DNA from: an uncultured Chromatiaceae bacterium
GTDB taxonomy: Bacteria > Pseudomonadota > Gammaproteobacteria > SZUA-140
Assembly: GCA_964605155.1 (NCBI GenBank)
Contig: CAZSAK010000012.1
Coordinates: forward strand, 16,746-80,745
Length of the DNA: 64,000 nt
Direction: 5' to 3'
Shown here: positions 1 to 43,943 of the stretch, in pieces
How the letters are laid out: the number at the start of each line of letters is the position of its first letter
Numbering within the stretch: position 1 is the stretch's first letter
The notes under the pieces: generated by a model
What the model saw: only the letters and a program-made list of their open reading frames with translations
Told to the model about the DNA's origin: nothing
Database searches by the model: none
Position numbers and translations under genes: made by a program

Positions 1-683
1 CTACGCCGTTGACCTCCGCCGCCGACATTATTGCGCTCGTGGCATTGCTGGCATTGGCGCGTTTCTTTACCGCACTTGGTGCCATGGATGTCGGCACCGC
101 TTTCGGTGGCATGGGTGCCAGCCGGGAGATGACCTTCGCCGCGTTGACGGAACCCGCATTGTTGATGAGTATATTTGTTCTCTCCATGGTGGCACACAGC
201 ACGAATATGACAGCCATGATCGATATCGTGCTTAACACTGGCCTCGGTCTGCGTCCGTCATTGGCCTTTGCCCTCGCCGCCCTGGGCCTGGTGACCATCG
301 CCGAGACAGGCCGCATTCCAGTGGACAATCCGGCCACTCATCTGGAATTGACCATGGTCCACGAGGCTATGATCCTGGAATACTCCGGACGTTACCTGGC
401 ACTTATCGAGTGGGCCAACCAGATCAAACTATTGCTGTTTGCCACCCTGATACTCAATCTGTTTTTCCCATGGGGAATGGCCGGCAGTCCCGATCCCCTC
501 TATATGGTGATCGCCGCTGTTGCATGGTTCGGCAAGCTGCTAGTGCTGTTTGTGTTACTGGCACTGTTTGAAACCTGGATGGCAAAGATGCGCATCTTTC
601 GCGTGCCGGAGTACCTTGGACTGGCATTCCTGCTGGCAATACTGGGTATGCTGACCCACTATATTCTGGAGGTTGGCGTGTAA
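1..683 (+). CDS. Hydrogenase-4/formate hydrogenlyase membrane subunit, HyfC/HycD (NuoH-like), C-terminal part. The gene is truncated by the window start.
   Basis: The ORF runs from base 9 to 683 with no upstream start inside the window. It is a hydrophobic polytopic protein. The segment LELTMVHEAMILEYSGRYLALIEWANQIKLL resembles the conserved HycD/NuoH C-terminal region. Its stop codon overlaps the start of the next gene, suggesting translational coupling. Confidence 0.6.
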   Translation, partial: TPLTSAADIIALVALLALARFFTALGAMDVGTAFGGMGASREMTFAALTEPALLMSIFVLSMVAHSTNMTAMIDIVLNTGLGLRPSLAFALAALGLVTIAETGRIPVDNPATHLELTMVHEAMILEYSGRYLALIEWANQIKLLLFATLILNLFFPWGMAGSPDPLYMVIAAVAWFGKLLVLFVLLALFETWMAKMRIFRVPEYLGLAFLLAILGMLTHYILEVGV

Positions 684-1339
684 TGCAGGTCACACTCTTG
701 CAGCAATGGGTAGGTGTTGCGGCAGCTATGATGTTACTGGTTGTATTTGCGCTGCTGGCGCAACGCCACATGCATGCCCTGCTGCGCTGGTTTGCGCTTC
801 AGGGTATTGTGCTGGCGTTGACCTCGGCGCTGGTCGCAAATGTCGCTGACGTGCCTGAGCTATATATCTCAGCAATACTTGCGCTTATCCTCAAAGGTGT
901 ACTGTTACCATGGATGTTATGGCGCATCGTGATCAATCTTGGCATGCACCGTGAAGTTGAGCCCCTGGTCAATGTATCGGTGACATTGCTGATTGGTGCC
1001 GCGCTGGTGCTGTTCTCGTTTTATGTCAGCCTGCCTATTGAAAAGCTCTCACAGCTGGTAACACGCAACACCATTGCCATTGCACTGGCATGCGTACTAC
1101 TCAGCATGCTGATGATGATCACACGCCGCAAGGCAATCACCCAGGTAGTCGGCTTTCTCGCCATGGAAAACGCCCTATTCTTCACTGCAACATCCACAAC
1201 CTATGGTATGCCGTTGCTGGTGGAGATCGGGGTGGCATTCGACGTCCTGATCGCAGCACTGGTATTTGGCCTGTTCTTCTTCCAGATCCGCAAAACGTTT
1301 GATTCGCTCAATCTCGAAGACCTGGAGGATAGACAGTGA
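683..1339 (+). CDS. Hydrogenase-4 component E-like integral membrane subunit (HyfE family)
   Basis: 218 aa, several transmembrane helices. It lies between the NuoH-like and NuoM/N-like genes, as hyfE does in hyf operons. Start and stop overlap the neighbouring genes (ATGA-type coupling). Confidence 0.55.
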   Translation: MQVTLLQQWVGVAAAMMLLVVFALLAQRHMHALLRWFALQGIVLALTSALVANVADVPELYISAILALILKGVLLPWMLWRIVINLGMHREVEPLVNVSVTLLIGAALVLFSFYVSLPIEKLSQLVTRNTIAIALACVLLSMLMMITRRKAITQVVGFLAMENALFFTATSTTYGMPLLVEIGVAFDVLIAALVFGLFFFQIRKTFDSLNLEDLEDRQ

Positions 1340-2799
1340 ATCTATTCGATCTGCTCCTGGGCGCGCCATTAATTACCAGTGTCATCATGGCGTTCATGGG
1401 TCATACCCGCAGCGCAACCAGCGTAAATATCGCCGCCAGCGCGATAGCGCTGATCACCGCACTTAGCCTTGCATACCGGGTATTACAACTGGGTTCTTTC
1501 ACCGCCCACGGCCAACTTTTCTTTCTTGATGCCTATAATGTATTTCTGCTTTCATTGACGGCCTTTGTAGCCACTACGACTGCCATCTTTTCAGGCCCGT
1601 ACATGTTGCATGAACAACAGATCGGGAGGGTAACAGCAAACCGCCTTCGCCTGTATCACTCCATGTTCCAGCTGTTTGTGTTCGGCATGTACCTCGTCCT
1701 CACCACGAATAATCTCGGTGTGATGTGGATAGCACTCGAACTTGCAACGCTGGCAACGGTACTGCTCGTGTCACTTTATCGCACTCCTGCGGCTATTGCT
1801 GCCGCCTGGAAATATTTCATTATCTGTGGCGTGGGCATAGCACTTGCCCTGTTTGGCACGATTCTTATTTTTGCAACCTCATCCGACGTACTCGGCCATG
1901 GCAACGACGCCCTGACCTGGACTTTGCTCTATGACAATGCCGGTCAACTTGCCCCACGTGTCATGACAATCGCCTTTGTGTTCCTGATCGTCGGTTACGG
2001 TACAAAAGTAGGTCTTGTACCGATGCACACCTGGTTACCGGACGCCCATGGTGAAGGACCGACCCCAATATCGGCGGTGCTCTCAGGTCTGTTGTTGAAT
2101 ATCGCGCTCTATGCCCTGGTGCGCTGCAAGACACTGGTCGATGGTGCGACCCAGGGTGACCTGGCCGGTAATCTAATGATGGGTTTCGGGATGTTGTCCG
2201 TGCTGGTGGCAGCCCTGTCACTACATCGTCAACGTGATGTCAAACGCATGTTTTCATTTTCTTCCATTGAACATATGGGCCTTATGACATTTGCCTTTGG
2301 CATCGGTACGCCGTTGGCCAATTTTGCAGGGCTGTTGCACATGACAGCACACTCGCTGGTTAAGTCAGGCATCTTCTTTACCGTCGGACATGCGGCACAG
2401 GCCATGGGGACTCAACAGATGATCAATATTCGCGGACTGGTGAGCCATCATCCCGGCATTGGCTGGGGATTGTTGATCGGCACCGTGGCGATTGCTGGTT
2501 TCCCACCCTTCGGAGTTTTTACCAGTGAATTCCTGTTATTTACTGCGGCATTACATACCCATCCATGGGTCGTTGTCCCATTGTTACTGGGACTGGTAGT
2601 GGCATTCGCCGGACTGTTCCGCCACGTGCAGCCGATGGCATTCGGCGTGGTGCCTGACAACGCCGCGTCAATCAAAATCAACATGCTGCCCGTCTATGTT
2701 CATCTCGGTCTGGCATTGATATTGGGGCTTGCCCTTCCGCCTTTTCTGGCCGACTGGTACCAAACCGCCGCCTACCTGTTGCACGGTACTGCGCGATGA
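1336..2799 (+). CDS. NuoM/NuoN-family proton-pumping antiporter-like subunit (HyfF/HyfB-like)
   Basis: 487 aa polytopic protein. It carries the complex I antiporter-subunit signature WLPDAHGEGPTPISAVLSG, followed by a TM-rich region. Its coding frame overlaps the following gene. Confidence 0.8.
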   Translation: MNLFDLLLGAPLITSVIMAFMGHTRSATSVNIAASAIALITALSLAYRVLQLGSFTAHGQLFFLDAYNVFLLSLTAFVATTTAIFSGPYMLHEQQIGRVTANRLRLYHSMFQLFVFGMYLVLTTNNLGVMWIALELATLATVLLVSLYRTPAAIAAAWKYFIICGVGIALALFGTILIFATSSDVLGHGNDALTWTLLYDNAGQLAPRVMTIAFVFLIVGYGTKVGLVPMHTWLPDAHGEGPTPISAVLSGLLLNIALYALVRCKTLVDGATQGDLAGNLMMGFGMLSVLVAALSLHRQRDVKRMFSFSSIEHMGLMTFAFGIGTPLANFAGLLHMTAHSLVKSGIFFTVGHAAQAMGTQQMINIRGLVSHHPGIGWGLLIGTVAIAGFPPFGVFTSEFLLFTAALHTHPWVVVPLLLGLVVAFAGLFRHVQPMAFGVVPDNAASIKINMLPVYVHLGLALILGLALPPFLADWYQTAAYLLHGTAR

Positions 2800-4361
2800 T
2801 ATTCGCACTGAGTAAATTTCTGGCCACACTCCTTACCGAGGCCGATATCGCATGTAAATTATTACCCGGCCAACCACCTACTCTGTATATAACTATCGAT
2901 CAGTGGCTATTGACGGCAAAGATTGCAAGAGAGGCGAAACTTCGGCTGGCAGCACTCTGGGCAACACAGGAAAACGATGGTTATTGCGTACATGCAGCGT
3001 TTGCCCGACGGGGCCAAGGTTACGCACTGGTGCAATCATCGCTGGATGTAAATGCCGTCGGGTTTCCCAGTATAACATCACACTATGTTGCCGCGGTACG
3101 CATGGAGCGCATCATGCATGATATGTTCGGTCTCGTGCCCACAGATAATCCCGACCTGCGTCCATGGCTCAAACACGAACACTGGCCATCGCATACCTTT
3201 GCATTGCGAAAGGAATTTCCAGCTACGACTGAATTATCGCGGGCTGAAGGTCGTTATCCTTTTATTGAAGCGGAAGGTGATGGGGTCTATGAGATCCCAG
3301 TCGGCCCGGTGCATGCAGGCATTATCGAGCCGGGGCATTTTCGCTTTCTTGCCGTAGGCGAACAGATTTTAAATCTGGAAGAGCGGCTGGGTTATGTCCA
3401 CAAGGGAATCGAAAAAGGCATGGAAGGACGTGACGTGTTCAGCGCTGCACGCCTTGCAGCACGTGTCTCGGGCGACGCTACAGTCGCGCACACATGGGCC
3501 TTTTGCCAGGCCACAGAACAGGCTGCGGGGATCGAGATTCCACCACGCGCATTGACCATCCGTGCCGTCCTGTGTGAGCGCGAACGTATGGCGAATCATA
3601 TCGGGGACATTGGTGCCATCTGCAACGATGCGTCATGGATATTCATGCACATGCAGTGTCAACGCTTGCGTGAGGAACTGGCACGTATACACCGCAGGAT
3701 ATTTGGTCATCGTCTGCTGATGGACTGCGTGGTACCAGGCGGGATCAAAGACGATACGAATATTGATGATGTACAGCTACTCAGGATTCAAACACGAAAT
3801 ATCGCTGACGAGATGCTGGAGTTATATAACACCTATGAGGACCATACGCCTATCCGCGAACGGGTCATTGATTCCGGCAACATCAGGGCTACTGATGCGG
3901 TTGATCTAGGGCTGCTGGGTTACGCCGGCCGCAGTGCTGAGTTTGATACCGATGCGCGACGCGACGCAGCGTATGCGCCGTATGATCAATATCCGCCACA
4001 GGTTAAGGTATGTCGTGGTGGTGATGTGGCCGCACGCTTGTGGGTAAGGTTCCAGGAAATCCAGGAAAGTGCAAGCCTGATAGATACAATGTTGCGTAAC
4101 CTGCCTGATGGACCGATACTGACCCCATGGAAAATGCCTCAGCAGACTAGTTGCGGTTTTGCCGCCATTGAATCATGGCGCGGGGAAATTGTTCTGTGGT
4201 TACGACTTTCGCAAGATAACCTCATCGACCGTTGTTATATCCGTGACCCCTCTATGATCAACTGGCTTGGTCTGGAGCTGGCGGCACGTAAAGTTCCTGT
4301 ACCGGACTTCCCGCTCAACAACAAATCGTTCAACTGCTCATACTCCGGACACGACCTATGA
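2796..4361 (+). CDS. Group-4 [NiFe]-hydrogenase large-subunit homolog (HyfG/HycE-like, NuoC+NuoD fusion) that lacks the NiFe-binding cysteines (Ehr-type)
   Basis: 521 aa. The region ARVSGDATVAHTWAFCQATEQAAGIEIPPRALTIRAV aligns with the HycE N-terminal motif RICGICGFAHSTAYCQA...IRAI, but the Cys-x-x-Cys pair is replaced by Ser...Ala. The C-terminus IRDPSMINW stands in place of the DPCxxC motif. The gene sits between NuoM/N-like and NuoB-like subunits. Confidence 0.8.
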   Translation: MIFALSKFLATLLTEADIACKLLPGQPPTLYITIDQWLLTAKIAREAKLRLAALWATQENDGYCVHAAFARRGQGYALVQSSLDVNAVGFPSITSHYVAAVRMERIMHDMFGLVPTDNPDLRPWLKHEHWPSHTFALRKEFPATTELSRAEGRYPFIEAEGDGVYEIPVGPVHAGIIEPGHFRFLAVGEQILNLEERLGYVHKGIEKGMEGRDVFSAARLAARVSGDATVAHTWAFCQATEQAAGIEIPPRALTIRAVLCERERMANHIGDIGAICNDASWIFMHMQCQRLREELARIHRRIFGHRLLMDCVVPGGIKDDTNIDDVQLLRIQTRNIADEMLELYNTYEDHTPIRERVIDSGNIRATDAVDLGLLGYAGRSAEFDTDARRDAAYAPYDQYPPQVKVCRGGDVAARLWVRFQEIQESASLIDTMLRNLPDGPILTPWKMPQQTSCGFAAIESWRGEIVLWLRLSQDNLIDRCYIRDPSMINWLGLELAARKVPVPDFPLNNKSFNCSYSGHDL

Positions 4362-4371
4362 AGATAGAAAG

Positions 4372-4884
4372 ATGAAAATATTCCGCAAGATTGTTCATAC
4401 CGGTCTGATTACCGAACCCTTGGGATATGCGGAACAGGAGATTGAGGAACTGGGCGTCAGGTTATCGGAAATGGTATTGCACCGGTTCCGGGGATCGCTC
4501 GCCATCCGTATGGTGGATGCGGGGTCATGTAATGGTTGTGAACTGGAGATCCATGCCACTAACAATCCGTACTATGACCTTGAACGCTTCGGTGCTCACT
4601 TCGTGGCTTCACCACGCCATGCAGATATTCTGTTGGTGACGGGACCAGTAACACGCAACATGGAAATGGCGCTTAAGATGACCTATGACGCGACACCCGA
4701 TCCCAAGCTAGTGGTTGCTGTGGGCGAATGTGCGGCATGCGGCGGCGAATTCGGCTGCTCATATGCATCGCTTGGCAAAGTCAGTAATATCATACCCGTG
4801 AATATCGTTGTACACGGCTGTCCGCCGAATCCTACTGACATCATACGCGGAATCCTCGCCGCCGTGGAAACAAATACCACTTGA
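4372..4884 (+). CDS. Hydrogenase small subunit / NuoB-like [4Fe-4S] subunit (HyfI/HycG-like)
   Basis: The motifs GSCNGCE, GECAACGG and HGCPPNP match the NuoB/HycG cluster-N2 cysteine pattern. The start was chosen at MKIFRK (ATG at 4372). The six-frame ORF extends further upstream and overlaps HyfG. Confidence 0.8.
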   Translation: MKIFRKIVHTGLITEPLGYAEQEIEELGVRLSEMVLHRFRGSLAIRMVDAGSCNGCELEIHATNNPYYDLERFGAHFVASPRHADILLVTGPVTRNMEMALKMTYDATPDPKLVVAVGECAACGGEFGCSYASLGKVSNIIPVNIVVHGCPPNPTDIIRGILAAVETNTT

Positions 4885-4954
4885 TCAGTCAATGCGGGTG
4901 AGGCCTAACAACCCCCAAGTAAACTAGCGCTGAAACACGGTGTTCTTGCAAACC

Positions 4955-5536
4955 TCAGTCATGATGATGGTCTTCATCTTCACCATCGTGATTATCATCC
5001 CCATGATTCGACATCGCCCCCATCGGTGTTTCGGAATCCGCCTCGCCATGGCTATGGCCATCACTGCCATGATGATGTTCATCAAGGTTCGGTAGCGAGA
5101 TCACCCCCAGACCATGCCGGAAGACGAGTTCCGCGCCATGCCATGCGGTCGCGACGAGCAGGCCCGCCGCCAGTAAGGCGGCCGACAGAAACAGGGCACT
5201 AACCTGCCGGGGAGGCCGGTATTTGCGCCACGACCACACTGCAAGCACCGCGACAACGGCGAATGTCACCAGTGCGAGGTTACGATGTTCCAGCATCACT
5301 ACATGGGCGGGGTCATCATGCTTGACGGTATTGAATGCGTGCCATCCGGCACCAATCGTCATGATCGTCACGATAGCACCCAGCCAGAGATTCCACAGCG
5401 CCACCGTGAGCAGTTGCTGTTTCAGGCTCGCATGCATCACAAAACGCGTCAAGATCAACAATCCTACAGAACTACCAAGCAGCCCCAGTGTGAAATGGAC
5501 CAATATGGGGTGATAGTTTGGAATAATCTCGATCAT
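4955..5536 (-). CDS. Integral membrane protein, possibly DUF2231-type, with a C-terminal His/Asp-rich tail
   Basis: 193 aa. The N-terminus reads HPILVHFTLGLL and about four TM helices follow. The C-terminus reads HHHGSDGHSHGEADSE...NHGDDNHDGEDEDHHHD. The gene is convergent with the hyf-like operon. Confidence 0.55.
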   Translation of the reverse strand: MIEIIPNYHPILVHFTLGLLGSSVGLLILTRFVMHASLKQQLLTVALWNLWLGAIVTIMTIGAGWHAFNTVKHDDPAHVVMLEHRNLALVTFAVVAVLAVWSWRKYRPPRQVSALFLSAALLAAGLLVATAWHGAELVFRHGLGVISLPNLDEHHHGSDGHSHGEADSETPMGAMSNHGDDNHDGEDEDHHHD

Positions 5537-5625
5537 TTCATATACCTTGTATTCGGATCTAAGACTTGATCAAGATGAAGTATACAAGCAAAATTCTCAA
5601 TCCCGTTCATGATTACCAGATCGCA

Positions 5626-6795
5626 TTATTGGATATACCCGTACTCAATATTGAGGATAGACGATCGCTCACCGATATTATCGTTGAATTTTGCGTCCAG
5701 CGAAAACGCGATTCCGACTTGTACGGTATTATCCTCACCACCGCCATACAAGGCATCGCCATATTGCGTATGGATCAGTTCAGTCAAGATGTCGACGCCC
5801 TGGCCCAGGCGGTACACAAACGACGGCACAATACTCCACTGCGTCGCCGACGTCACATCCGGATAGTCCTTGTATCCCAGCGATAGTGATGCCTGCCATC
5901 GCGTCAACAGGTTGGGTCTTGAAGTAAAGCGCCACCCAGCCACCAAAGAGGTCGATTTCGCGCGCGCCTGATTGGCAACGTCGTTGACAGGGCCATTCAG
6001 ATCTCCTGTGGTGATGCCGTCTATACCTTCGTTGAAGATGGTTTGTACGGCCATCGACCAGTTGGCGCGGGGATCAAGGTTGAGATTCAGTTCAGCACCT
6101 GCGATGACGGCCTTCATCCACTCATCACCCGAAGTAGTGGTCACCTGCTGGGTATCCAGCAGTATACCGGCATGGCCCAGTCTCTTTACATAACGCAATT
6201 CAGCGGGCAGTTCAAATTGATAACCCGCTCCGTAACTGTCGAATCCTCCCGATGCCGGCACACCTGTATCGTCACCACGCATTCCGGTCCAGATATTGAT
6301 GCTTTGATAGCGGCGATCGACAAACCAGTCAAACGAGAAAATGCGTGCATGTATCTGATCAAACTCGGTACTTGATGATGCGTTGCCCACATGGGTATAA
6401 CTGAGCAGATCAGCATCATGCGGCGTGGGGAATTCGATCAGGGTATTCGGCAACAGGGTACGCCCGATTTGCACCTCTATATCACGGTTCCACATAAACA
6501 CATAAAATTTATGAAATCGAACCTCGTTCTCATTCTCTTCAAGGCCGATCACTCCGCCGGCAACACCCTGTTCATAGAGCCGCTTGTCAAGCCGCATCAT
6601 CAACAACGAGTCCCGTATGTTGATTTCACTGTCCCTGTCGGGATCTGAATCATGGTCGACGATATCGATCGTACTGATCACCCGGCCACCCAAGGTAATA
6701 CGCGGCACCACCTCCCGGTCGACCTCCAGGGCGAAGGCCGGCGGGATTGCGGTTATGAAAACCAGAACGAACAGGATATATCTTTTCATCAACAT
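5626..6795 (-). CDS. Outer-membrane beta-barrel protein, tentatively a CopB-like copper-resistance outer-membrane protein
   Basis: The start was chosen at MLMKRYILFVLVFITAIPPAFA, a signal peptide, with a GGAGGA ribosome-binding site 5 nt upstream. The protein is rich in alternating aromatic and polar beta-strand segments. It lies 16 bp downstream of the multicopper oxidase gene on the same strand. Confidence 0.5.
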   Translation of the reverse strand: MLMKRYILFVLVFITAIPPAFALEVDREVVPRITLGGRVISTIDIVDHDSDPDRDSEINIRDSLLMMRLDKRLYEQGVAGGVIGLEENENEVRFHKFYVFMWNRDIEVQIGRTLLPNTLIEFPTPHDADLLSYTHVGNASSSTEFDQIHARIFSFDWFVDRRYQSINIWTGMRGDDTGVPASGGFDSYGAGYQFELPAELRYVKRLGHAGILLDTQQVTTTSGDEWMKAVIAGAELNLNLDPRANWSMAVQTIFNEGIDGITTGDLNGPVNDVANQARAKSTSLVAGWRFTSRPNLLTRWQASLSLGYKDYPDVTSATQWSIVPSFVYRLGQGVDILTELIHTQYGDALYGGGEDNTVQVGIAFSLDAKFNDNIGERSSILNIEYGYIQ

Positions 6796-6811
6796 GGTGA
6801 TCCTCCGATAG

Positions 6812-8128
6812 TCACTGATCGACAGAAACAGCTGGTACATAGCTGGGTTCGAAATCCTCATACTCCAGCAGGGTAAGGGCACCGCCCGGGTATATACCGT
6901 TGTTACGCGCCTGAGTCGTTTTATGATCGTGAAACGTCCAGTATCCCGGGTTGTCACCATAGATCATGATGTCGTAGGTGCCTCCGGGTTCGACATGGAT
7001 GGTGTTGATATGCCTTGGATCGGGCAGGTCGTTACCGTCCTGCGCCACCCACCAGAAATCATGGCCATGCAGATGCATGTGATGACTCTGGCTGCTGGCG
7101 CTGATCAGGCGGAGGCGAATCCATTCACCCTGTTTAATCCCGATACGCCGGGTAGCCGGATAGGATTTACCGTTGATACCGAAGAAGTTAGGCCTGAACG
7201 GTATGCGATTACTTCGGCCTTGCAGATACGGGGGCACGTAATCATCATTCCGATACGCCTCGAGGAATGCCTGATAAGTCTTAAAGAAACCGTGGGTCAT
7301 CGGGTCAAGCATCCCCTTGGCCATCAGGAGATTGACCTGTTTCATGCCTTCCAACAGACCATTCATCTCTTCACGGGCAAAGTCAACATCCCATGACTCG
7401 AGCACCAGCGTGTATTCCCGTTCGTATGGAAAACGTTCCTTGAGGTGTTCGTTCCTGCGTTGGATGATGAAGGCGCCGTGCATACCGGTCGAAGCATGCA
7501 ATGGCGTACCCCAGTGACAATGGTACCAGCGCGTGCCGGCCGGCTTTGCCTGAAAGCGGTAGACAAAGGTCTGGCCTGGATGAACCGGATCCTGCGTGAT
7601 CATCGGCACGCCGTCCATGGTGTAGGGAACGGCAAGGCCGTGCCAGTGGATGGTGTGCATCTCTTCGGTCTTGTTGGTGAAGTTGACCTTGATCCAGTCA
7701 CCCTCGGTCACATTGAACTCGGGTCCCGGGACCTGGCCGTTAAAGACGAACATATGTACCTGTATACCCGGCAGGATTTCATGCCGGGCGATCTTCACCT
7801 CTATGGAAAACTCCTTGTACTTCACCTCGTCATCGCGCGGCGCACCTGGCGGCTCGATCGTCATGCCCGGCTCCATGTTATGGCCCGGCGTAAACATCAT
7901 GGAATGATAGTCTTCCGTCATGTCCATCGCCTGGTGATCCGCCAAGCCGTGTTGACCGTGTCCCTCCGGCATGGGGTATCCACTGCGTGCCGACAACGCA
8001 CCACCGGTAAATACCGCAGTTGCACGCAGGAAATTACGCCGTGTTATCAGCCTTCCGGATTGCTGATCCCGTCTTTTACTTCCGGCACTCACTTGATGAA
8101 GCCGTTCTTTCCCGGTGTCTTTCATCAT
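6812..8128 (-). CDS. Tat-secreted multicopper oxidase (CopA/CueO-like)
   Basis: It has a twin-arginine signal (RRNFLRATAVFTGGALSA). The copper-ligand motifs HWHG, HCHWG...H and HMHLHGHDFWW are present. Confidence 0.8.
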   Translation of the reverse strand: MMKDTGKERLHQVSAGSKRRDQQSGRLITRRNFLRATAVFTGGALSARSGYPMPEGHGQHGLADHQAMDMTEDYHSMMFTPGHNMEPGMTIEPPGAPRDDEVKYKEFSIEVKIARHEILPGIQVHMFVFNGQVPGPEFNVTEGDWIKVNFTNKTEEMHTIHWHGLAVPYTMDGVPMITQDPVHPGQTFVYRFQAKPAGTRWYHCHWGTPLHASTGMHGAFIIQRRNEHLKERFPYEREYTLVLESWDVDFAREEMNGLLEGMKQVNLLMAKGMLDPMTHGFFKTYQAFLEAYRNDDYVPPYLQGRSNRIPFRPNFFGINGKSYPATRRIGIKQGEWIRLRLISASSQSHHMHLHGHDFWWVAQDGNDLPDPRHINTIHVEPGGTYDIMIYGDNPGYWTFHDHKTTQARNNGIYPGGALTLLEYEDFEPSYVPAVSVDQ

Positions 8129-8693: not shown

Positions 8694-9608
8694 TCAATCA
8701 CCACCCGGCATATGCCACAGGGACTTGGCCTCTTTCAGGACGAAATCCTTGAATGCCTGTGTGATCGGTGAGAGGCGTTTACCCTTGCGATGAACGACAT
8801 ACCATTGGCGCATGATAGGAAACGATTCGACATCGAGCACCACCAGGTGATGGGTTTGCAATTCGAGTTCGAGAGTGTGCAGGGAGACGATGCCCAGACC
8901 CAGACCGGCCTGTACTGCCTGCTGGATGGCCTCATTACTGGTCATTACCATGCCGGTGGTAAGATGGATGCCCTTTTCATTGAAAAAACGCTCCATCGCA
9001 ATGCGAGTACCCGATACGGCTTCACGCACCACAAAGGTTTCGCCCTGCAACTCGGTCAATGGGATGTGTTTACGCCGCGCAAACGGATGATCAGGCGCCG
9101 CAATCACTACCAAAGGATTATCCATGAAGGGCTCGGCATCAAGATCAGTTCCCTCTGGTGGTTTTCCCATGATGACCAGATCGGTCTCATTGGCAGAGAG
9201 TTGCTGTAACAGATTCTCACGGTTGGTAACGTCAAGGCTGACGGTCACGCCTTTCATGCGTACATTAAAGATTGCCAGTAACCGGGTACTGAAGTAATTG
9301 GCCGTACTCGCGACCGAGACAACCAATCTGCCGCGTTTTACACCTTTCATATCCTCGATAACCGTCTCGGCCTCCGCCAGTTGCTGGGCAATCGTGCGAC
9401 TGTAATGAAACATCTCCCGACCGGCCTCGGTAAGATAGATCTTCTTGCCGAGGCGTTCGAACAACGGCAGGCCGATATTGGCTTCCAGTTGCTTGATCTG
9501 CATCGAGACGGCCGGTTGCGATAGATAGAGCTCCTCCGCCGCATGCGTATAACTCAATAATCTTGCTACAGATTCAAAGATTTTCAGCTGATGCAGGGTG
9601 ACATGCAT
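8694..9608 (-). CDS. cbbR: LysR-family transcriptional regulator of the RuBisCO operon (CbbR)
   Basis: The N-terminal helix-turn-helix reads LHQLKIFESVARLLSYTHAAEELYLSQPAVSMQIKQLE. The gene is divergently transcribed from cbbL across an AT-rich intergenic region. Confidence 0.85.
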   Translation of the reverse strand: MHVTLHQLKIFESVARLLSYTHAAEELYLSQPAVSMQIKQLEANIGLPLFERLGKKIYLTEAGREMFHYSRTIAQQLAEAETVIEDMKGVKRGRLVVSVASTANYFSTRLLAIFNVRMKGVTVSLDVTNRENLLQQLSANETDLVIMGKPPEGTDLDAEPFMDNPLVVIAAPDHPFARRKHIPLTELQGETFVVREAVSGTRIAMERFFNEKGIHLTTGMVMTSNEAIQQAVQAGLGLGIVSLHTLELELQTHHLVVLDVESFPIMRQWYVVHRKGKRLSPITQAFKDFVLKEAKSLWHMPGGD

Positions 9609-9844
9609 AATATAATTATATATAAATAAATATTTATGTTAAATATAAATTATATTTATTTTACATTATAATTTATTCCCGTATGATTTGTATCACAATA
9701 AGCCTGAGGCAGCAGGAGTTGACTATAATCAGGAATCAGGAAAGCCGTTTGGCACTGTTGACCCGCTTCACTGAATAACAAGACTTATAAATTAAAGTTG
9801 TATCGAAACCGAATACCAATCTTTTATATAGAGGAGAATTGATC
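9609..9844. promoter_or_regulatory. cbbR-cbbL divergent promoter/operator region
   Basis: Roughly 80 bp are almost pure A/T in a genome of about 50% GC. It contains the perfect 16-bp palindrome ATAAATAAATATTTAT at about 9622-9637 and several T-N11-A-like LysR motifs. A GAGGAG ribosome-binding site lies 8 nt before the cbbL ATG. Confidence 0.6.
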
Positions 9845-11263
9845 ATGGCAAAGACCTATACCGCGGGTGTCAAGGATTACCGCGAAACCTACTGGATGCC
9901 CGACTACACCCCGTCGGATACAGATATCCTGGCGTGCTTCAAAGTCACGCCACAACCCGGGGTCCCACGTGAGGAAGCTGCAGCCGCGGTAGCCGCCGAG
10001 TCATCGACCGGTACCTGGACAACGGTCTGGACCGACCTGTTGACGGACCTCGATTATTACAAGGGACGCGCCTATGCGATTGAGGATGTACCTGGTGATG
10101 ATGAATGTTTTTATGCCTTCATCGCCTATCCGATTGACCTGTTCGAAGAAGGTTCCGTCGTCAACGTATTCACTTCACTGGTCGGCAACGTATTCGGATT
10201 CAAGGCGCTGCGCAACCTGCGTCTCGAGGACGTTCGCTTCCCGATCGCCTATGTCAAAACCTGCGGTGGTCCGCCGAACGGCATACAGGTTGAACGTGAC
10301 ATCATGAATAAATATGGTCGTCCGCTGCTGGGTTGCACCATCAAACCCAAACTGGGCCTGTCTGCAAAAAACTATGGTCGTGCCGTCTATGAATGTCTGC
10401 GCGGCGGCCTGGACTTCACCAAGGATGATGAAAACGTCAATTCACAACCATTCATGCGCTGGAATCATCGTTTTGATTTTGTCATGGAGGCCATTGAAAA
10501 GGCCGAGAGGGAGACGGGTGAACGCAAGGGTCATTACCTAAATGTAACAGCACCCACACCGGAAGAGATGTACAGACGCGCAGAATATGCCAAGGAACTC
10601 GGCGCACCGATTATCATGCACGACTATATTACCGGAGGCTTCTGCGCCAACACAGGCCTGGCTAACTGGTGTCGTCAGAATGGCATGTTGCTGCATATTC
10701 ACCGCGCCATGCATGCTGTGCTCGACAGGCATCCGCGTCACGGCATCCATTTCCGGGTACTGGCCAAGATCCTGCGTCTATCAGGTGGTGATCATCTCCA
10801 CTCCGGCACCGTCGTCGGCAAGCTGGAAGGTGACCGCGAGGCGACACTGGGCTGGATCGATATCATGCGCGACAGCTTCATCAAGGAAGACCGCAGCCGC
10901 GGTATCTTCTTCGATCAGGACTGGGGTTCCATGCCCGGAGTATTGCCGGTCGCATCCGGTGGTATCCACGTATGGCATATGCCAGCGCTGGTCGCCATCT
11001 TCGGTGACGACTCCGTACTGCAATTCGGCGGCGGAACACTGGGTCACCCGTGGGGCAACGCAGCCGGTGCCGCGGCCAACCGTGTCTCGCTGGAAGCCTG
11101 TGTGGAGGCACGTAACCAGGGCCGTCAGATCGAGAAGGAAGGCAAGGAAATTCTCACCGAGGCTGCCAAACACAGTCCGGAACTCAAGATGGCGATGGAA
11201 ACCTGGAAAGAGATCAAGTTTGAATTCGATACGGTGGACAAACTGGACGTCGCCCACAAGTAA
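9845..11263 (+). CDS. cbbL: Ribulose-1,5-bisphosphate carboxylase/oxygenase large subunit, form IA
   Basis: The sequence is unmistakably RbcL: the form I N-terminus [21 protein letters not shown], the active-site stretch [20 protein letters not shown], and HRAMHAV with GGDHLHSGT. The C-terminus resembles form IA. Confidence 0.97.
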
Positions 11264-11351: not shown

Positions 11352-11711
11352 ATGAGCACAATGCAAGACTACAGTTCAAGCCTGAGTGATCCGGCAAGCC
11401 GCAAGTTCGAGACCTTTTCATACCTGCCGGAGCTGGACAAGGATCAGATTCGCAAACAGGTGGAATACATAGTGAACAAGGGCTGGAATCCGGCCATCGA
11501 ACACACCGAGCCGGAAAACGCCTTCGATCACTACTGGTATATGTGGAAACTGCCAATGTTCGGCGAGACCGATGTGGATACAATACTGAACGAGGCCGAG
11601 GCCTGTCACAAAGCACATCCGGACCATCACGTACGCCTGGTCGGTTACGACAATTACAAACAGTCTCAGGGAACGGCCCTGGTAATCTTTCGTGGTCCCA
11701 TCAAGGTCTGA
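11352..11711 (+). CDS. cbbS: RuBisCO small subunit
   Basis: 119 aa and directly downstream of cbbL. It carries the characteristic FETFSYLP and [11 protein letters not shown] motifs and has a GAGGA ribosome-binding site. Confidence 0.95.
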
Positions 11712-11796: not shown

Positions 11797-12603
11797 ATGA
11801 CTATGGACAATACTGAACAATACCGGATTCAAGAAGAACCCTATTATCTCCCTGTCGCCGACGAGGTAGAACTCTATAAAGCCGCATACGAAGCCCGCAT
11901 GCCTATGATGCTGAAGGGACCGACCGGCTGCGGCAAAACACGCTTTGTGGAATACATGGCCTGGAAACTGCAACGGCCCTTGATTACCGTGGCGTGCAAC
12001 GAGGACATGACGGCATCCGATCTGGTGGGCCGATATCTGCTGGATCCCGACGGCACTCGCTGGCAGGACGGACCACTTACCACAGCGGCTCGACTCGGTG
12101 CAATCTGTTATCTGGACGAGGTCGTCGAGGCCAGGCAGGACACCACCGTTGTTATCCATCCGCTTACCGATCATCGTCGCACGCTGCCACTTGAAAAAAA
12201 AGGTGAACTTGTCCATGCCCACGCTGATTTCCAGCTGGTGATATCCTACAATCCCGGCTATCAACATCTGATGAAGGATCTCAAACAATCCACCAAGCAA
12301 CGTTTCGGTGCCCTGGACTTTGCCTATCCCGACATTGAGGTCGAAACGAAAGTCGTCAGCCATGAAACCGGGGTGGATGAGGACACTGCGAACAAACTGG
12401 TCCAGATTGCCCATCGGGCACGCAATCTGAAAGGGCATGGTCTGGATGAAGGTCTTTCGACGCGACTACTGGTCTATGCCGGTATCCTTATCAGCAAGGG
12501 CATCGATGCCAGAACGGCATGCATGATGACACTGGTAAGGCCCATCACCGATGACCCGGATATGCGTGACACACTCGATGCGGCGGTCAGCACCTATTTC
12601 TAG
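11797..12603 (+). CDS. cbbQ: CbbQ, an AAA+ (MoxR-type) RuBisCO activase ATPase
   Basis: It has the Walker A motif [10 protein letters not shown], is 268 aa, and follows cbbS. Confidence 0.92.
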
Positions 12604-12618
12604 CCAGTTGCCTGTCTG

Positions 12619-14970
12619 ATGACCGTCAAGCTAGATGATTACCGGGACTGGCTGGAGGAGACTGATCCACATATCCGGGACACCCTCGACGGCAGCTTTG
12701 CCGAAGCGGCGCGTGTCATGTCTTCCGCTGCACTCACCCATTATCTCGATGGCGCCCGGGCGTTGTGTGAACTCGGACGTGGCACAGACCTGGTCGTTTC
12801 ATACCTGCAGGAAATGCCGACCGTCGCGAAGGAAGTGGGAGAAGATGTCATCAAGGACTGTTCCAGCGCCGCGATGAAACTCTCCTCGCTGGTCAGCGGG
12901 GAGATCATCAGCCTGATGTTCGCCAATCTGCCAGCCGCCGCCAGGCGGCTCGGTGACGCTGAATTATTGCGCAGTTTTCTCAACCTCGTCCACCAGCTCG
13001 CCTCCAAGGCGCCCCGTGGACTGAGGCCCATGATGGCCCATCTTGATGACTTGTTCACCAAGCTGACGCTGGGCGGACTGCGGCGCTGGGCCATGTGGGG
13101 TGTACAGGCGCACGGACGTGATTTTGATGCTTTGAGCGCCTACTTCAATCTGGAGTCAGCCGATAGCCAGGCCATTCTTAACAGGGAAAGACGCGGCACC
13201 CTGTTTGTGGATCATCAACGCAAACTGGGTTTTTATCTGCGCGCGCTGTGGGGCAGGAATTTCTTCCTGCGGCCGACGTCGGGGGACTATGAAAGTCGTG
13301 AAGGATACAGACCCTACATAGAATACCAGATTATCCACTTACCCGACGCGTTTGACAATGTCCACGATATACCCGGCAGTATATTGTACCGCGCCGCCGC
13401 CGCACACGCCGCCGCACATCTGGCGTATACACGGCAGGCCCTGTCGGCAGAGGCACTCAATCCCGTACAGATGTTCTTCATCGGCATGATCGAGGATGCC
13501 CGCATCGAGTCGCTGGCGATTGCGGAATTTCCCGGGCTTAAACAGCTCTGGCTGCAGTTCCATCAGGCGCTGCTCGACGCAGATACGGACAACGCCAATC
13601 ACACTGTAATTCGCCTGCTCCGGCAATGCGCACGTAGTCTTCTGGATAATAGGATCACGGACGAAACAGACCCTCTCATCGGGGAGATCTGTGATGAGTT
13701 CCAGGCAAGGGTTGCACAACAAGCCCATGACAACAGGATAAGCTGGGAACTCGGTATCGCTTTGTATAACCGGATCAAGAAGTCAGCGTCCTTGCCCTCC
13801 CTCAGGGAACTGGGATCCTCGCTGGCGCCGTACCGGGATGACAACCGCTTTAGCTGGTCGACCGAGGAACAGATATGGAATGAAGTCGAATATATCCCTG
13901 CAAGTCACCGACAGGTCAGACGCAACGTATCCATCATGGAAATGGTCAATGAACTCGATTGCGAACTTGCCGGCGACGATGCGGAGGAAATCTGGAACCT
14001 GGAGACTGAATTCTTTCGCGACGGCGATCCGGAAGATGTCAGTCTCAATCAGCTGGAGGGCAAGGAACCCGTCAGTCTGCCCTATCACTATCATGAATGG
14101 GATTATCAGGTTCAGTTACACCGTCCTGACTGGGTGACTGTACTGGAAAAGTCCCAGCCAAAGGGCGATCCCGGGGATATCGATGAGATCCTGACGGAAT
14201 ACAAGTTGCTCGCAAACCGCATCAGGCAGGTCATCAATGCCCTGCAGCCGAGAGGTTTGATACGCCAGCGTCACCAGGAAGACGGGGATGAAATCGACCT
14301 GAATGCGGCCATCAACGCCATGGTGACTCTACGTATGCATCAAATACCGGATCCCAGGGTCAATATTCGTCATATCCGCAACACCCGTGACCTTGCCGTA
14401 CTGGTATTGCTCGATCTTTCCGAATCGACCAATGAGACCCTGTCAGGCAGCGACCGCCCGGTATTACAACTGGCTCGTGAAGCAACTGCCCTGCTCGCCT
14501 GGGCGATCGACCGTATAGGGGATCCCTTTGCCATCCATGGGTTCGCATCAGACGGACGCCATGATGTGCAGTATTATCGTTTCAAGGATTTTGACTGGGC
14601 GTATGATGACCACGTCAAATCAAGGCTCGCAGGCATGCAGGGAGGTCTGTCTACCCGCATGGGCGGGGCACTGCGCCATGCGGGCAGCTACCTGTTGCAA
14701 CAACCGCAACAGAAAAAACTGATCTTGCTGGTCTCGGATGGAGAACCCGCTGACATCGATGAACGTGATCCACAATATCTGCGCCACGATACCAGGAAGG
14801 CTGTCGAAGAACTCACTACAAAAGGTGTTCTCACTTACTGCCTGACACTTGATCCGGATGCTGATGATTATGTATCACGAATCTTCGGCACCAATGCCTA
14901 TACCGTAGTCGACAATGTACAGCGTTTGCCGGAACGATTACCGTCACTTTTCATGACACTGACTAAATAA
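12619..14970 (+). CDS. cbbO: CbbO, the von Willebrand factor A domain partner of CbbQ
   Basis: 783 aa. The C-terminal VWA domain is marked by VLLDLSESTNE and LLVSDGEPADID. It follows cbbQ. Confidence 0.9.
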   Translation: MTVKLDDYRDWLEETDPHIRDTLDGSFAEAARVMSSAALTHYLDGARALCELGRGTDLVVSYLQEMPTVAKEVGEDVIKDCSSAAMKLSSLVSGEIISLMFANLPAAARRLGDAELLRSFLNLVHQLASKAPRGLRPMMAHLDDLFTKLTLGGLRRWAMWGVQAHGRDFDALSAYFNLESADSQAILNRERRGTLFVDHQRKLGFYLRALWGRNFFLRPTSGDYESREGYRPYIEYQIIHLPDAFDNVHDIPGSILYRAAAAHAAAHLAYTRQALSAEALNPVQMFFIGMIEDARIESLAIAEFPGLKQLWLQFHQALLDADTDNANHTVIRLLRQCARSLLDNRITDETDPLIGEICDEFQARVAQQAHDNRISWELGIALYNRIKKSASLPSLRELGSSLAPYRDDNRFSWSTEEQIWNEVEYIPASHRQVRRNVSIMEMVNELDCELAGDDAEEIWNLETEFFRDGDPEDVSLNQLEGKEPVSLPYHYHEWDYQVQLHRPDWVTVLEKSQPKGDPGDIDEILTEYKLLANRIRQVINALQPRGLIRQRHQEDGDEIDLNAAINAMVTLRMHQIPDPRVNIRHIRNTRDLAVLVLLDLSESTNETLSGSDRPVLQLAREATALLAWAIDRIGDPFAIHGFASDGRHDVQYYRFKDFDWAYDDHVKSRLAGMQGGLSTRMGGALRHAGSYLLQQPQQKKLILLVSDGEPADIDERDPQYLRHDTRKAVEELTTKGVLTYCLTLDPDADDYVSRIFGTNAYTVVDNVQRLPERLPSLFMTLTK

Positions 14971-43921: not shown

Positions 43922-43943
43922 CGCGTCTTATTCCATCATGTCT

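Follow-up and report, generated by a model that had tools for sequence, protein, structure and literature searches.

The Ehr class of membrane complexes has been known for about 20 years; it was reportedly named (for Ech-hydrogenase-related) by Coppi (2005), and is said to have been surveyed by Marreiros et al. (2013). A further hydrogenase-derived system is the sulfane-sulfur reductase MBS of Pyrococcus furiosus (formerly Mbx, PDB 6U8Y), where H2 chemistry has been replaced by another substrate at the same site; it has a 13-subunit Mrp-type architecture with a NuoI-like subunit, and its MbsL keeps some cysteines. Six-gene hyfBCEFGI/Ehr clusters have been described without an assigned function (PMC7735108, PMC5596200, PMC2864759, PMC10284858, PMC12342949), under the name Ehr or as non-hydrogenase hyfBCEFGI (PMC7735108, PMC10284858, PMC12342949, PMC7894505, PMC2864759), and the function of Ehr was still given as unknown in 2025 (PMC12342949).

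The operon studied here shares features with each of the closest described systems. Judged by its described subunit set, the Geobacter sulfurreducens Ehr (GSU0739-45) matches our operon: its membrane proteins are NuoL-, NuoH-, HyfE- and antiporter-like, the large subunit has no NiFe ligands, the small subunit is NuoB-like and no further Fe-S subunit is present (PMC7894505). Our subfamily, for its part, has a conserved Cys514 in the large subunit, and those of its members with a name are autotrophs that oxidise nitrite or iron. In Nitrospira, Acidithiobacillus ferrooxidans and Cupriavidus metallidurans/H16 the hyfBCEFGI clusters have the same six-gene order, and their large subunit is likewise classed as non-hydrogenase (PMC5596200, PMC7735108, PMC2864759, PMC12342949); these probably belong to the wider Cys-less clade and not to the subfamily of the query. 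The best sequence and fold match is E. coli hydrogenase 3/4 (HycE/HyfG, formate hydrogenlyase, PDB 7Z0S), with which the large subunit has the NuoC-NuoD fusion and an 'EPGHFR' loop with a conserved Glu in common, and Hyf has orthologues of the HyfB, C, E, F, G and I proteins of our operon. However, the query is 28-30% identical, is without all four NiFe cysteines and the 32-residue C-terminal extension of Hyc/Hyf, and its operon lacks HyfA, HyfD, HyfH/HycF and HyfJ. The complex I Q-module (NuoCD/Nqo4 and NuoB/Nqo6) also has no NiFe site and carries an N2-type [4Fe-4S] cluster in the NuoB homologue, NuoCD ends directly after the ...D-x motif as the query does, and the Ehr clade has the Asp325 and Pro560 states of NuoCD (fold TM 0.78). 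In contrast to complex I, the query lacks the Tyr273 and His quinone ligands, scores 169.9 with NuoD models (far under the cutoff of 360), and none of NuoA, I, J, E, F and G is encoded in its operon.

Layout of the operon

Positions 1-4884 of the window (the whole 64-kb stretch of DNA that was analysed) are the 3' part of a six-gene Ehr ('hyfBCEFGI', energy-converting-hydrogenase-related) operon in the order hyfB-C-E-F-G-I, with the gene for the HyfB-like subunit outside the window:

1..683, + strand: HyfC/HycD/NuoH-like membrane subunit, 3' two-thirds, truncated by the window start (315 aa in relatives; Pfam NADHdh, E 3.7e-22)
683..1339, + strand: small HyfE-like protein of the membrane part, 218 aa (87.6 bits with NCBIfam NF008556 'hydrogenase 4 membrane subunit', under the cutoff of 136; operon position conserved)
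1336..2799, + strand: antiporter-type subunit resembling HyfF, 487 aa (718 bits with NF005045 'hydrogenase 4 subunit F', whose cutoff is 543)
2796..4361, + strand: large subunit EhrL, NuoC+NuoD fusion, HycE/HyfG homologue without NiFe ligands, 521 aa
4372..4884, + strand: small subunit EhrS, NuoB/HycG-like, 170 aa (Pfam Oxidored_q6, E 3e-31; NF005012, 120 bits against a cutoff of 116)

The conserved position of the HyfE-like gene was seen in the relative loci L002, L004, L010 and L012, and the channel residues E135, K224, H339, K343 and E398 of the HyfF-like subunit are conserved. The reading frames of ehrL and ehrS are both real. The ATG of ehrL overlaps the stop codon of the hyfF-like gene as ATGA. 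EhrS begins with the ATG at 4372, in line with how the gene is called in relative locus L006; a TTG at 4267 was rejected.

The same six genes form an operon in Nitrospina gracilis, Ca. Nitronauta and metagenomic relatives, and in Mariprofundus with one additional seventh gene upstream, while the flanking genes are not conserved across the compared relatives. No HycF/NuoI-like two-cluster Fe-S subunit is encoded in the operon, none of the compared relative operons (Nitrospina gracilis, Ca. Nitronauta, Mariprofundus and metagenomic) contains a Fer4-type gene, and no ORF of more than 60 aa in the whole 64-kb window has a CxxCxxCxxxC motif. There is no electron-donor gene near the operon, and no hyp or fdhF gene among the window ORFs scanned. 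The host is an uncultured autotroph that resembles Gammaproteobacteria and carries RuBisCO; in the window the operon lies about 5 kb from a cbbR-cbbLSQO RuBisCO cluster.

Ligand positions in the large and small subunits

The sequence-only reading had proposed that the 521-aa HycE/HyfG-like protein has lost all four NiFe-ligating cysteines while its NuoB-like partner keeps the Fe-S ligands, and both parts hold. The ligand positions were taken from a phmmer alignment to PDB 7z0s_E and two MAFFT alignments, which all agree and have no gaps around either motif (L1 and L2):

3462..3491, + strand: vestigial L1, R223-VSGDATVA-H232 (Cys to Ser225, Cys to Ala228, plus the clade-specific Asp227)
4245..4262, + strand: 'DPSMIN', D484-N489, a complex-I-like RxPSxxN motif about 30 residues upstream of the true L2
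4326..4358, + strand: vestigial L2, S511-FNCSYSGHD-L521, at the extreme C-terminus (Cys to Ser515, Cys to Gly518)
4528..4542, + strand: CNGCE, cysteines 1-2 of the [4Fe-4S] site (aligned with HycG 'CNGCE' and NuoB 'SCCYVE')
4723..4746, + strand: GECAACGG, third cluster cysteine (C120, invariant across the family, HycG, HyfI and NuoB)
4816..4827, + strand: GCPP, fourth cluster cysteine (G149-C150-P151-P152, invariant)

At L1 the L1 cysteines of the RVCGICGFAH found in HycE and HyfG are replaced by Ser and Ala, as had been read. When aligned with E. coli HycE and HyfG, the NiFe columns are without Cys; only the register of L2 was wrong, as 'DPSMIN' had been taken for the C-terminal DPCxxC but aligns with 'AATYAN' of HycE and 'TPSFAH' of E. 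coli NuoCD. The true L2 is formed by the last 11 residues (SFNCSYSGHDL before the stop, versus SLDPCYSCTDR with C531 and C534 in HycE), and thus the L2 cysteines correspond to Ser515 and Gly518. With Ser, Ala, Ser and Gly at the four ligand sites, the large subunit is predicted to be unable to hold an NiFe(CN)2CO centre and is not expected to produce or consume H2, in agreement with the earlier prediction that the complex cannot make H2.

In EhrS the CNGCE (residues 53-57; present in 7/7 family loci), GECAACGG (118-125) and GCPP (149-152) motifs line up with the cysteines that hold the cluster in HycG, HyfI and NuoB, and all four cysteines predicted to bind the proximal [4Fe-4S] cluster are retained. 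The large subunit appears to have kept the group-4-hydrogenase/NuoCD (HycE) fold: its best PDB sequence match is HycE (E 1e-58), and the AF2 model (pLDDT 80.8, pTM 0.86) has HycE (7z0s_E) as best fold match with a TM of 0.83.

Conservation and phylogeny of the Cys-less clade

The NiFe-site substitutions are common to all 120 closest homologues listed, and the L1 Cys pair is missing from 83 of 103 representative clusters, so the loss of cysteines is not a chance pattern. The closest homologues with taxon names are from Nitrospinota and Zetaproteobacteria. The subfamily of the query (at least 51% identity) reads 'SFNCSYSG' at L2, whereas the wider Cys-less clade (32-48% identical to the query; Burkholderia, Falsiroseomonas, Thermodesulfovibrio and Binatia) reads 'SFNLSYSG'; the literature adds Geobacter, Cupriavidus and Nitrospira to the hosts. 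The residue that differs is Cys514, one residue before the first lost L2 cysteine, which is present in all 120 closest homologues listed and invariant in the 42-sequence subfamily alignment, versus Leu in 67 of the 83 wider Cys-less representatives.

The former NiFe pocket is well conserved, at 76-98% versus 37% for the median column; within L1 of the 83 Cys-less representative clusters this is 76% for S225, 93% for G226 and 88% for D227. The Cys-less clade has gained Asp227 and has the complex I state at D278 (NuoCD D325) and at P485 of 'DPSMIN', which matches NuoCD P560 and is one of six positions separating Cys-less from Cys-bearing relatives. The dN/dS ratios range from 0.06 to 0.09 (EhrL 0.085, EhrS 0.074, HyfF-like 0.057, the latter versus L004). 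In a tree made by neighbour-joining only, the query belongs to a clade that contains no hydrogenases and is separate from the Cys-bearing relatives, as the sequence-only reading had anticipated; this clade holds 90 of the 95 Cys-less sequences and has at least 35 members in every one of 100 bootstrap replicates, although exact monophyly of all Cys-less sequences has a low bootstrap (14/100).

These results support the assignment to Ehr, since all defining features of such a complex were found in this operon, namely the hydrogenase-like fold, loss of the four ligands, the NuoB-like [4Fe-4S] cysteines, membrane subunits in the same predicted operon and placement in a hydrogenase-free clade. We give a probability of roughly 0.8 to this explanation, an Ehr operon with membrane subunits and a two-protein peripheral arm that is not a hydrogenase, and found nothing that speaks against the Ehr identification itself.

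Possible functions of the complex

As a tentative mechanism, possible but held at well under even odds, Ehr may be a reversible ion-coupled oxidoreductase built around the single [4Fe-4S] cluster, with a soluble donor and a pocket acceptor. The membrane part would consist of three or four complex-I/Mrp-type subunits (HyfB-like, HyfC/NuoH-like, HyfE-like, HyfF-like). A soluble ferredoxin- or flavodoxin-type carrier of low potential would dock at the HycF/NuoI location and exchange electrons with the cluster, which would serve an acceptor, most likely a membrane quinone, in the remodelled and strongly conserved pocket (Ser225, Asp227, His232, Asp278, Cys514, Ser515, Tyr516 and Glu178) where the large, small and NuoH-like subunits meet, and turnover would be coupled to H+ or cation movement via the HyfC, E, F and B subunits. 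This proposal is weakened by the missing complex I quinone ligands (Gly226 at NuoCD Tyr273, and Pro179 aligned with the NuoCD His), by the remodelling of the acidic loop between TM5 and TM6 in the NuoH-like subunit, which has lost two Glu and gained 3 aa by insertion ('PVDNPATHLELTMVHEAMILEYSG' versus HycD 'PFDLAEAEQEL---QEGPLSEYSG', aligned with HycD, HyfC and NuoH), by the lack of a donor gene nearby and by the diverse physiologies of the hosts.

The missing quinone ligands also fit a different reading, which we consider unlikely, in which the complex is a redox-gated or redox-independent Mrp-like cation/proton antiporter with the peripheral arm as a structural or regulatory remnant, the [4Fe-4S] cluster only as redox sensor and no turnover in the pocket. 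The absence of both a donor module and a HycF/NuoI relay, the intact antiporter residues and the unrelated energy metabolisms of the clade hosts are in line with this, but more drift would be expected of a mere scaffold: the pocket ranks with the best-conserved regions of the large subunit and gained the clade-specific Asp227, the large and small subunits have just as low a dN/dS as the membrane subunit, and the four cluster cysteines are all kept. Quite improbable is thiol or sulfur redox chemistry beside the cluster via Cys514, as in Pyrococcus MBS or ferredoxin:thioredoxin reductase. Conservation of this residue in the Nitrospinota/Zetaproteobacteria/gammaproteobacterial subfamily, next to a former NiFe ligand, single pocket cysteines elsewhere in some relatives, and the peroxiredoxin-glutaredoxin hybrid and pyridine-nucleotide disulfide oxidoreductase that follow the operon on the same strand in L004 and L005 are suggestive, but the prevalence of Leu means that Cys514 cannot explain the whole class, a single cysteine offers no redox-active pair, the Prx-Grx neighbourhood is absent from the window and from L002, L010, L011 and L012, and the match to MbsL (6u8y_L, E 1e-14) is far weaker than that to HycE.

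The nearness of the RuBisCO cluster raised the very improbable option of a module for CO2 hydration or carbon concentration, comparable to the cyanobacterial NDH-1 that carries Cup proteins, against which stand the lack of cbb genes within 10 kb in L002, L004, L010, L011 and L012, the absence of CupA-, DabA- and carbonic-anhydrase-like genes from the operon, and the occurrence of clade members in heterotrophs. It is barely credible that EhrL is a genuine [NiFe]-hydrogenase of an unusual, group 4f-like kind with other metal ligands, or that the cysteine loss is an alignment artefact: while Pfam NiFeSe_Hases matches residues 203-269 (E 3e-8), public annotations read 'hydrogenase large subunit' and the nearest Cys-bearing relatives are 32-37% identical with the same domain layout, their 'RxCGxC...ELCYACxDR' motifs fall in the exact columns of 'RVSGDA...NCSYSGHDL' in the query, in keeping with the three alignments, which are free of gaps around L1 and L2. 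Furthermore, the homologous subunit of the A. ferrooxidans hyfBCEFGI cluster is non-hydrogenase by HydDB (PMC7735108), and H2 does not induce Ehr expression in N. moscoviensis (PMC12342949). Finally, a functionless, decaying remnant of a formate hydrogenlyase operon was suggested by the absence of hyfA, D, H and J compared to E. coli hyfABCDEFGHIJ and by the likeness to an 'incomplete hyf operon' drawn in the Cupriavidus genome paper (PMC2864759), but is effectively refuted by the low dN/dS; the ORFs are also intact, of constant length across phyla and with overlapping start and stop codons, the six-gene set recurs in several phyla (in Mariprofundus with its extra gene), and all Ehr subunits were detected in the Geobacter proteome (PMC7894505).

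The operon in the window is thus one more copy of the widespread and well-known Ehr/hyfBCEFGI class, a relative of hydrogenases and complex I, and the distribution of this class over very different physiologies, including heterotrophs, points to no single substrate.

The operon and its large subunit

The window opens with five closely packed + strand genes, whose start and stop codons either share bases (ATGA at 2796-2799) or are separated by 10 nt:

1-683, + strand, NuoH/HycD-like gene (hyfC'), truncated by the window edge
683-1339, + strand, HyfE-like gene
1336-2799, + strand, HyfF-like antiporter-type gene (NF005045, 718 bits, over the cutoff)
2796-4361, + strand, NuoC-NuoD fusion, HycE/HyfG-like, 521 aa (large subunit)
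4372 (ATG)-4884, + strand, NuoB/HycG-like gene, 170 aa (small subunit)

The membrane subunits hyfC', hyfE and hyfF are encoded together with the large and small subunits, and the next gene after the operon, encoding a DUF2231 protein, is on the opposite strand. A scan of 4300-5700 for terminators and promoters found none, so that the end of the operon was inferred from the strand switch at 4955 only. No Hyp maturation or endopeptidase genes were seen among the window ORFs scanned (part of the ORFs, in 64 kb of the genome), and the ferredoxin motif CxxCxxCxxxC was absent from every ORF >60 aa in a six-frame scan of the 64-kb window.

The large subunit contains the Pfam domains Complex1_30kDa, Complex1_49kDa and NiFeSe_Hases, and matches E. 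coli HycE with an E-value of 1.2e-58. The best fold match of its AF2 model (pLDDT 80.8, pTM 0.86) is likewise HycE (7z0s_E, TM 0.83), followed by E. coli NuoCD (0.78), and no solved structure closer than HycE was found in this comparison. Alignments place the four former NiFe-ligating cysteines at S225, A228, S515 and G518. The N-terminal motif (L1) reads RVSGDATVAH where both HycE and HyfG have RVCGICGFAH, so that the sequence-only reading of this motif, with Cys replaced by Ser (Ser225) and Ala (Ala228), is borne out. The same reading had taken 'DPSMIN' (residues 484-489; 4245-4262) for the C-terminal motif (L2), but this is the wrong register: the segment aligns with AATYAN of HycE and TPSFAH of E. 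coli NuoCD, and is a complex-I-like RxPSxxN motif. The true L2 motif is formed by the last 11 residues, SFNCSYSGHDL* versus SLDPCYSCTDR in HycE, giving Ser515 and Gly518. The nearest Cys-bearing relatives have ELCYACxDR in the very columns where the query has NCSYSGHDL, with no gaps, and therefore all four ligands are truly absent; the conclusion of the earlier reading was right, although one of its two motif assignments was wrong. With no conserved Cys pairs at the NiFe positions in the alignment to HycE and HyfG, the large subunit is predicted to be unable to coordinate a NiFe centre in the canonical manner. We also considered the missing C-terminal extension as a mark of non-maturation, and rejected this since the nearest Cys-bearing relatives likewise end in ...DR.

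The NiFe cysteine substitutions are common to all 120 closest homologues listed (51-94% identity), which all have S-x-S-G at the four positions. A further cysteine, Cys514, had escaped the sequence-only reading and directly precedes the lost L2 ligand. It is invariant in the 42-sequence subfamily alignment and present in 120/120 of the closest homologues listed, whereas this position is Leu in 67 of the 83 representatives of the wider Cys-less clade.

Phylogenetic placement, operon conservation and host

Searching 1.84 billion cluster representatives exhaustively with HMMER yielded 6376 relatives, and motif statistics were obtained from the 103 full-length representatives within the best 150 of these. 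The L1 Cys pair is missing in 83 of the 103, and all four cysteines are kept in 17/103; the Cys-less consensus is R[VI]SGD[ST]xV[AG]H ... SFNLSYSGxDL. In a tree made by neighbour-joining only, without curated HydDB references and with NuoCD as root, the Cys-bearing sequences together with HycE and HyfG form a basal grade, while the query is located outside these, in a clade free of hydrogenases that takes in 90 of the 95 Cys-less sequences, as expected from the earlier reading. Over 100 bootstraps the size of this clade was at least 35 members, with a median of 80, and the subfamily of the query was recovered in 96/100 replicates. Strict monophyly of all Cys-less sequences had little support (14/100), as the position of five divergent 'SG[TL]' sequences is unstable. 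Some relatives retain between one and three of the NiFe cysteines (P0133, P0135, P0136 and P0223 with CSxG, P0185 with CCCA, P0171 with CCCD and P0198 with CCTG), and this partial retention suggests that the cysteines may have been lost stepwise or repeatedly along the transition from hydrogenase to energy-converting hydrogenase-related (Ehr) complex. The named Cys-bearing neighbours are from anaerobic lineages or uncultured MAGs (Desulfotomaculum, Planctomycetota, Vampirovibrionales/Melainabacteria). We rejected the possibility that all of the Cys-less clade is confined to lithoautotrophs, as its named members include Burkholderia, Falsiroseomonas, Thermodesulfovibrio and Binatia.

Among the closest homologues listed, the taxon-named matches comprise five from Nitrospinota, including Nitrospina gracilis and Ca. 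Nitronauta litoralis, and 14 from Zetaproteobacteria/Mariprofundaceae. Contigs were searched with the large subunit alone as a single-sequence query, for which an alignment query would have had greater reach, and this gave one locus (L001), from a Gammaproteobacteria MAG with 66% identity. The operon in N. gracilis, Ca. Nitronauta and two metagenomic contigs has the order hyfB(660-672 aa)-hyfC(315)-hyfE(218)-hyfF(487)-hyfG(521)-hyfI(170), and the complete hyfBCEFGI operon is found at loci L002 and L012 (both Nitrospinota), L004 (an 84%-identical relative) and L005. Mariprofundus sp. EBB-1 (L010) has hyfBCEFGI and a seventh gene of 710 aa (2741-4873) upstream of hyfB, which encodes a second antiporter-like (PF00361) subunit and is itself preceded by a Cupin/HTH regulator.

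The flanking genes differ in every lineage. At L004 and L005 a peroxiredoxin-glutaredoxin hybrid and a pyridine-nucleotide disulfide oxidoreductase (12329-14523) are located 240 bp 3' of the operon on the same strand, an arrangement not seen at the other loci. The two Nitrospinota loci have a gene for an HTH_17+PTS_EIIA_2 regulator immediately upstream of the operon (L002 4155-4835, L012 4156-4842), and a gene for an Nfu/NifU-type Fe-S carrier within a few kb (L002 1730-2341, L012 14040-14681). In the window itself, a three-gene block on the - strand (4955-8128) separates the Ehr operon from a RuBisCO cluster, with an ordinary chromosomal context beyond:

4955-5536, - strand, DUF2231 membrane protein
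5626-6795, - strand, 389-aa protein with no Pfam/NCBIfam match
6812-8125, - strand, multicopper oxidase, 437 aa, with weak matches, below threshold, to models of CopA, NirK and rusticyanin
8694-9608, - strand, cbbR-like LysR regulator, divergent from cbbL
9839-11263, opposite to cbbR, cbbL (RuBisCO operon)
11352-11711, opposite to cbbR, cbbS (RuBisCO operon)
11797-12603, opposite to cbbR, cbbQ (activase gene)
12619-14970, opposite to cbbR, cbbO (activase gene)
17169-18485, - strand, Amt ammonium transporter
46926-48260, + strand, GshA-type glutamate-cysteine ligase
60273-61640, - strand, PntB transhydrogenase beta subunit

The host is an uncultured Gammaproteobacteria-like organism, whose PurT has no more than 77% identity to any named match (Gammaproteobacteria MAGs, Sulfuricaulis, Thioalkalivibrio), and its form I RuBisCO operon, which includes the CbbQ/O activase genes, marks it as a Calvin-cycle autotroph. 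A link between the Ehr operon and the adjacent RuBisCO cluster was rejected, because this neighbourhood is not conserved at the L002, L004, L010, L011 and L012 loci. Elsewhere in the window (41456-46031, - strand), an 821-aa CheA-like kinase (HATPase_c + CheW) adjoins a 695-aa protein for which no credible Pfam match was found.

Iron-sulfur content and the former NiFe pocket

The CNGCE, GECAACGG and GCPP motifs of the small subunit, described as kept in the sequence-only reading, do align with the cysteines of HycG, HyfI and NuoB. CNGCE/CNACE and GCPP are kept in 7/7 family loci, and the middle motif with the third cysteine was matched by regular expression in 6/7, with Mariprofundus (L010) as the miss; the complex is predicted to retain one [4Fe-4S] site. 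The NuoI-like subunit with two [4Fe-4S] clusters (HycF/HyfH/EchF/MbhN) was found in no operon of any locus examined, and there was no HycF/NuoI-like, HyfA-like or HycB-like Fe-S gene at any locus compared. A gene for such a subunit may lie elsewhere in the genome.

The complex is under strong purifying selection: compared with the 84%-identical relative, HyfF has a dN/dS of 0.057, and the large and small subunits have values of 0.085 and 0.074, respectively. The former NiFe pocket has not decayed but has been remodelled, with Ser-Gly-Asp and Asn-x-Ser-Tyr-Ser-Gly conserved: in the Cys-less representatives conservation is 76% for S225, 93% for G226 and 88% for D227 on the N-terminal side, and 83% for S515, 82% for Y516, 89% for G518 and 98% for D520 on the C-terminal side, against 37% for the median column. 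The hydrogenase-type Glu178 in the 'EPGHFR' loop is conserved in 93%. Six positions discriminate Cys-less from Cys-bearing relatives (S225, D227, S515, G518, D278 and P485), and two of these are in the complex-I state, namely D278 (nt 3627-3629; D325 of NuoCD) and P485 (P560 of NuoCD), which at the sequence level would constitute a 'missing link' trait. We take D325 of NuoCD to be the Asp which in complex I forms a pair with the His of the quinone site, and regard this as a lead. The complex-I quinone ligands are not present, with Gly226 at the position of NuoCD Y273 (Nqo4 Y87) and Pro179 at that of the NuoCD His.

Relation to known systems and possible function

The locus shows every testable feature of the Ehr complexes, including operon context and tree position, in agreement with the sequence-only interpretation. 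It shares with these the group-4/NuoD-like large subunit, the absence of the L1/L2 CxxC NiFe cysteines, the NuoB-like small subunit with [4Fe-4S] cysteines, the co-encoding with NuoH-like and Mrp/NuoL-M-N-like membrane subunits, and the separation from Cys-bearing group-4 hydrogenases and complex I (neighbour-joining only). In contrast, the group 4 [NiFe]-hydrogenases (Hyc, Hyf, Ech, Mbh, Coo, 4f) are characterised by L1 RxCGxCxxxH and L2 [DE][PL]CxxCxx[HR], neither of which is present in the query, and have a NuoI-like subunit in the complex. Complex I (NuoD/Nqo4) has a quinone-ligating Tyr and a beta1-beta2 loop His, both missing here, and the query scores far below the cutoffs of the NuoD models (169.9 vs 360 for NF004739, 134.5 vs 459 for TIGR01962). 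The match to the MBS/Mbx sulfane reductase (6u8y_L, E 1.3e-14) is much weaker than that to HycE, and MBS/Mbx has a 13-subunit Mrp-type operon with the NuoI-like MbsN, whereas the Ehr operon has six genes and no NuoI-like gene. The locus adds an ordinary further member to a known class, but no new principle.

The Ehr class was reportedly named for Geobacter by Coppi in 2005, and is said to have been surveyed by Marreiros et al. in 2013. The six-gene 'hyfBCEFGI' cluster was remarked on in Cupriavidus in 2010 (PMC2864759) and in Nitrospira (PMC5596200; PMC10284858), while the homologous subunit of A. ferrooxidans falls in the non-hydrogenase class of HydDB (PMC7735108). In Geobacter all Ehr subunits are expressed, with higher abundance on formate (PMC7894505), and according to a 2025 survey the function of Ehr is still unknown and its expression is unresponsive to H2 (PMC12342949). 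The hyfBCEFGI cluster is not mentioned in the Nitrospina gracilis genome paper, and our literature search found no paper joining Zetaproteobacteria with hyf, nor any combining 'hydrogenase-related', cryo-EM, complex I and 'antiporter-like'.

The reading we tentatively prefer, with a probability of roughly 0.3, is that the complex works reversibly as an ion-coupled oxidoreductase. A soluble carrier of low potential would dock directly on the small and large subunits, replacing the missing NuoI-like relay, and its electrons would pass via the single cluster to or from an acceptor in the remodelled polar pocket, for which a quinone seems most plausible. The canonical ion-channel residues E135/K224/H339/K343/E398 of HyfF are kept, and the TM5-6 loop of the NuoH-like subunit is altered. 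The chief rival, a redox-gated Mrp-like antiporter, is somewhat less probable than the oxidoreductase. We give little weight to the ideas that Cys514 takes part in sulfur or thiol chemistry, that the complex is a cryptic hydrogenase or a dead remnant, or that it serves in carbon concentration.

The Cys514 subfamily could be a pmf-driven reverse-electron-transport module, passing electrons from the quinol pool to a ferredoxin-type carrier via the single [4Fe-4S] cluster, a proposal that we consider rather a long shot. The taxon names of this subfamily so far are only those of nitrite-oxidising Nitrospinota, iron-oxidising Zetaproteobacteria and gammaproteobacterial autotroph MAGs. If true, such a module would give low-potential reductant to organisms living on high-potential electron donors.

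In evolutionary terms, Ehr complexes are seen as linking energy-converting hydrogenases to complex I. They occur widely in bacteria of environmental importance, among them nitrifiers, iron oxidisers, Geobacter and Burkholderia, but we know of no substrate, structure or phenotype for them. The picture is sharpened here by a remodelled pocket with two complex-I-state signature positions, a single Fe-S cluster without a relay subunit, and a lithoautotroph-associated subfamily with an additional pocket cysteine, and all of these are concrete targets for mutagenesis and structure determination. The result also corrects the annotation, in that Ehr genes should not be taken to indicate H2 or formate metabolism when metagenomes are surveyed.
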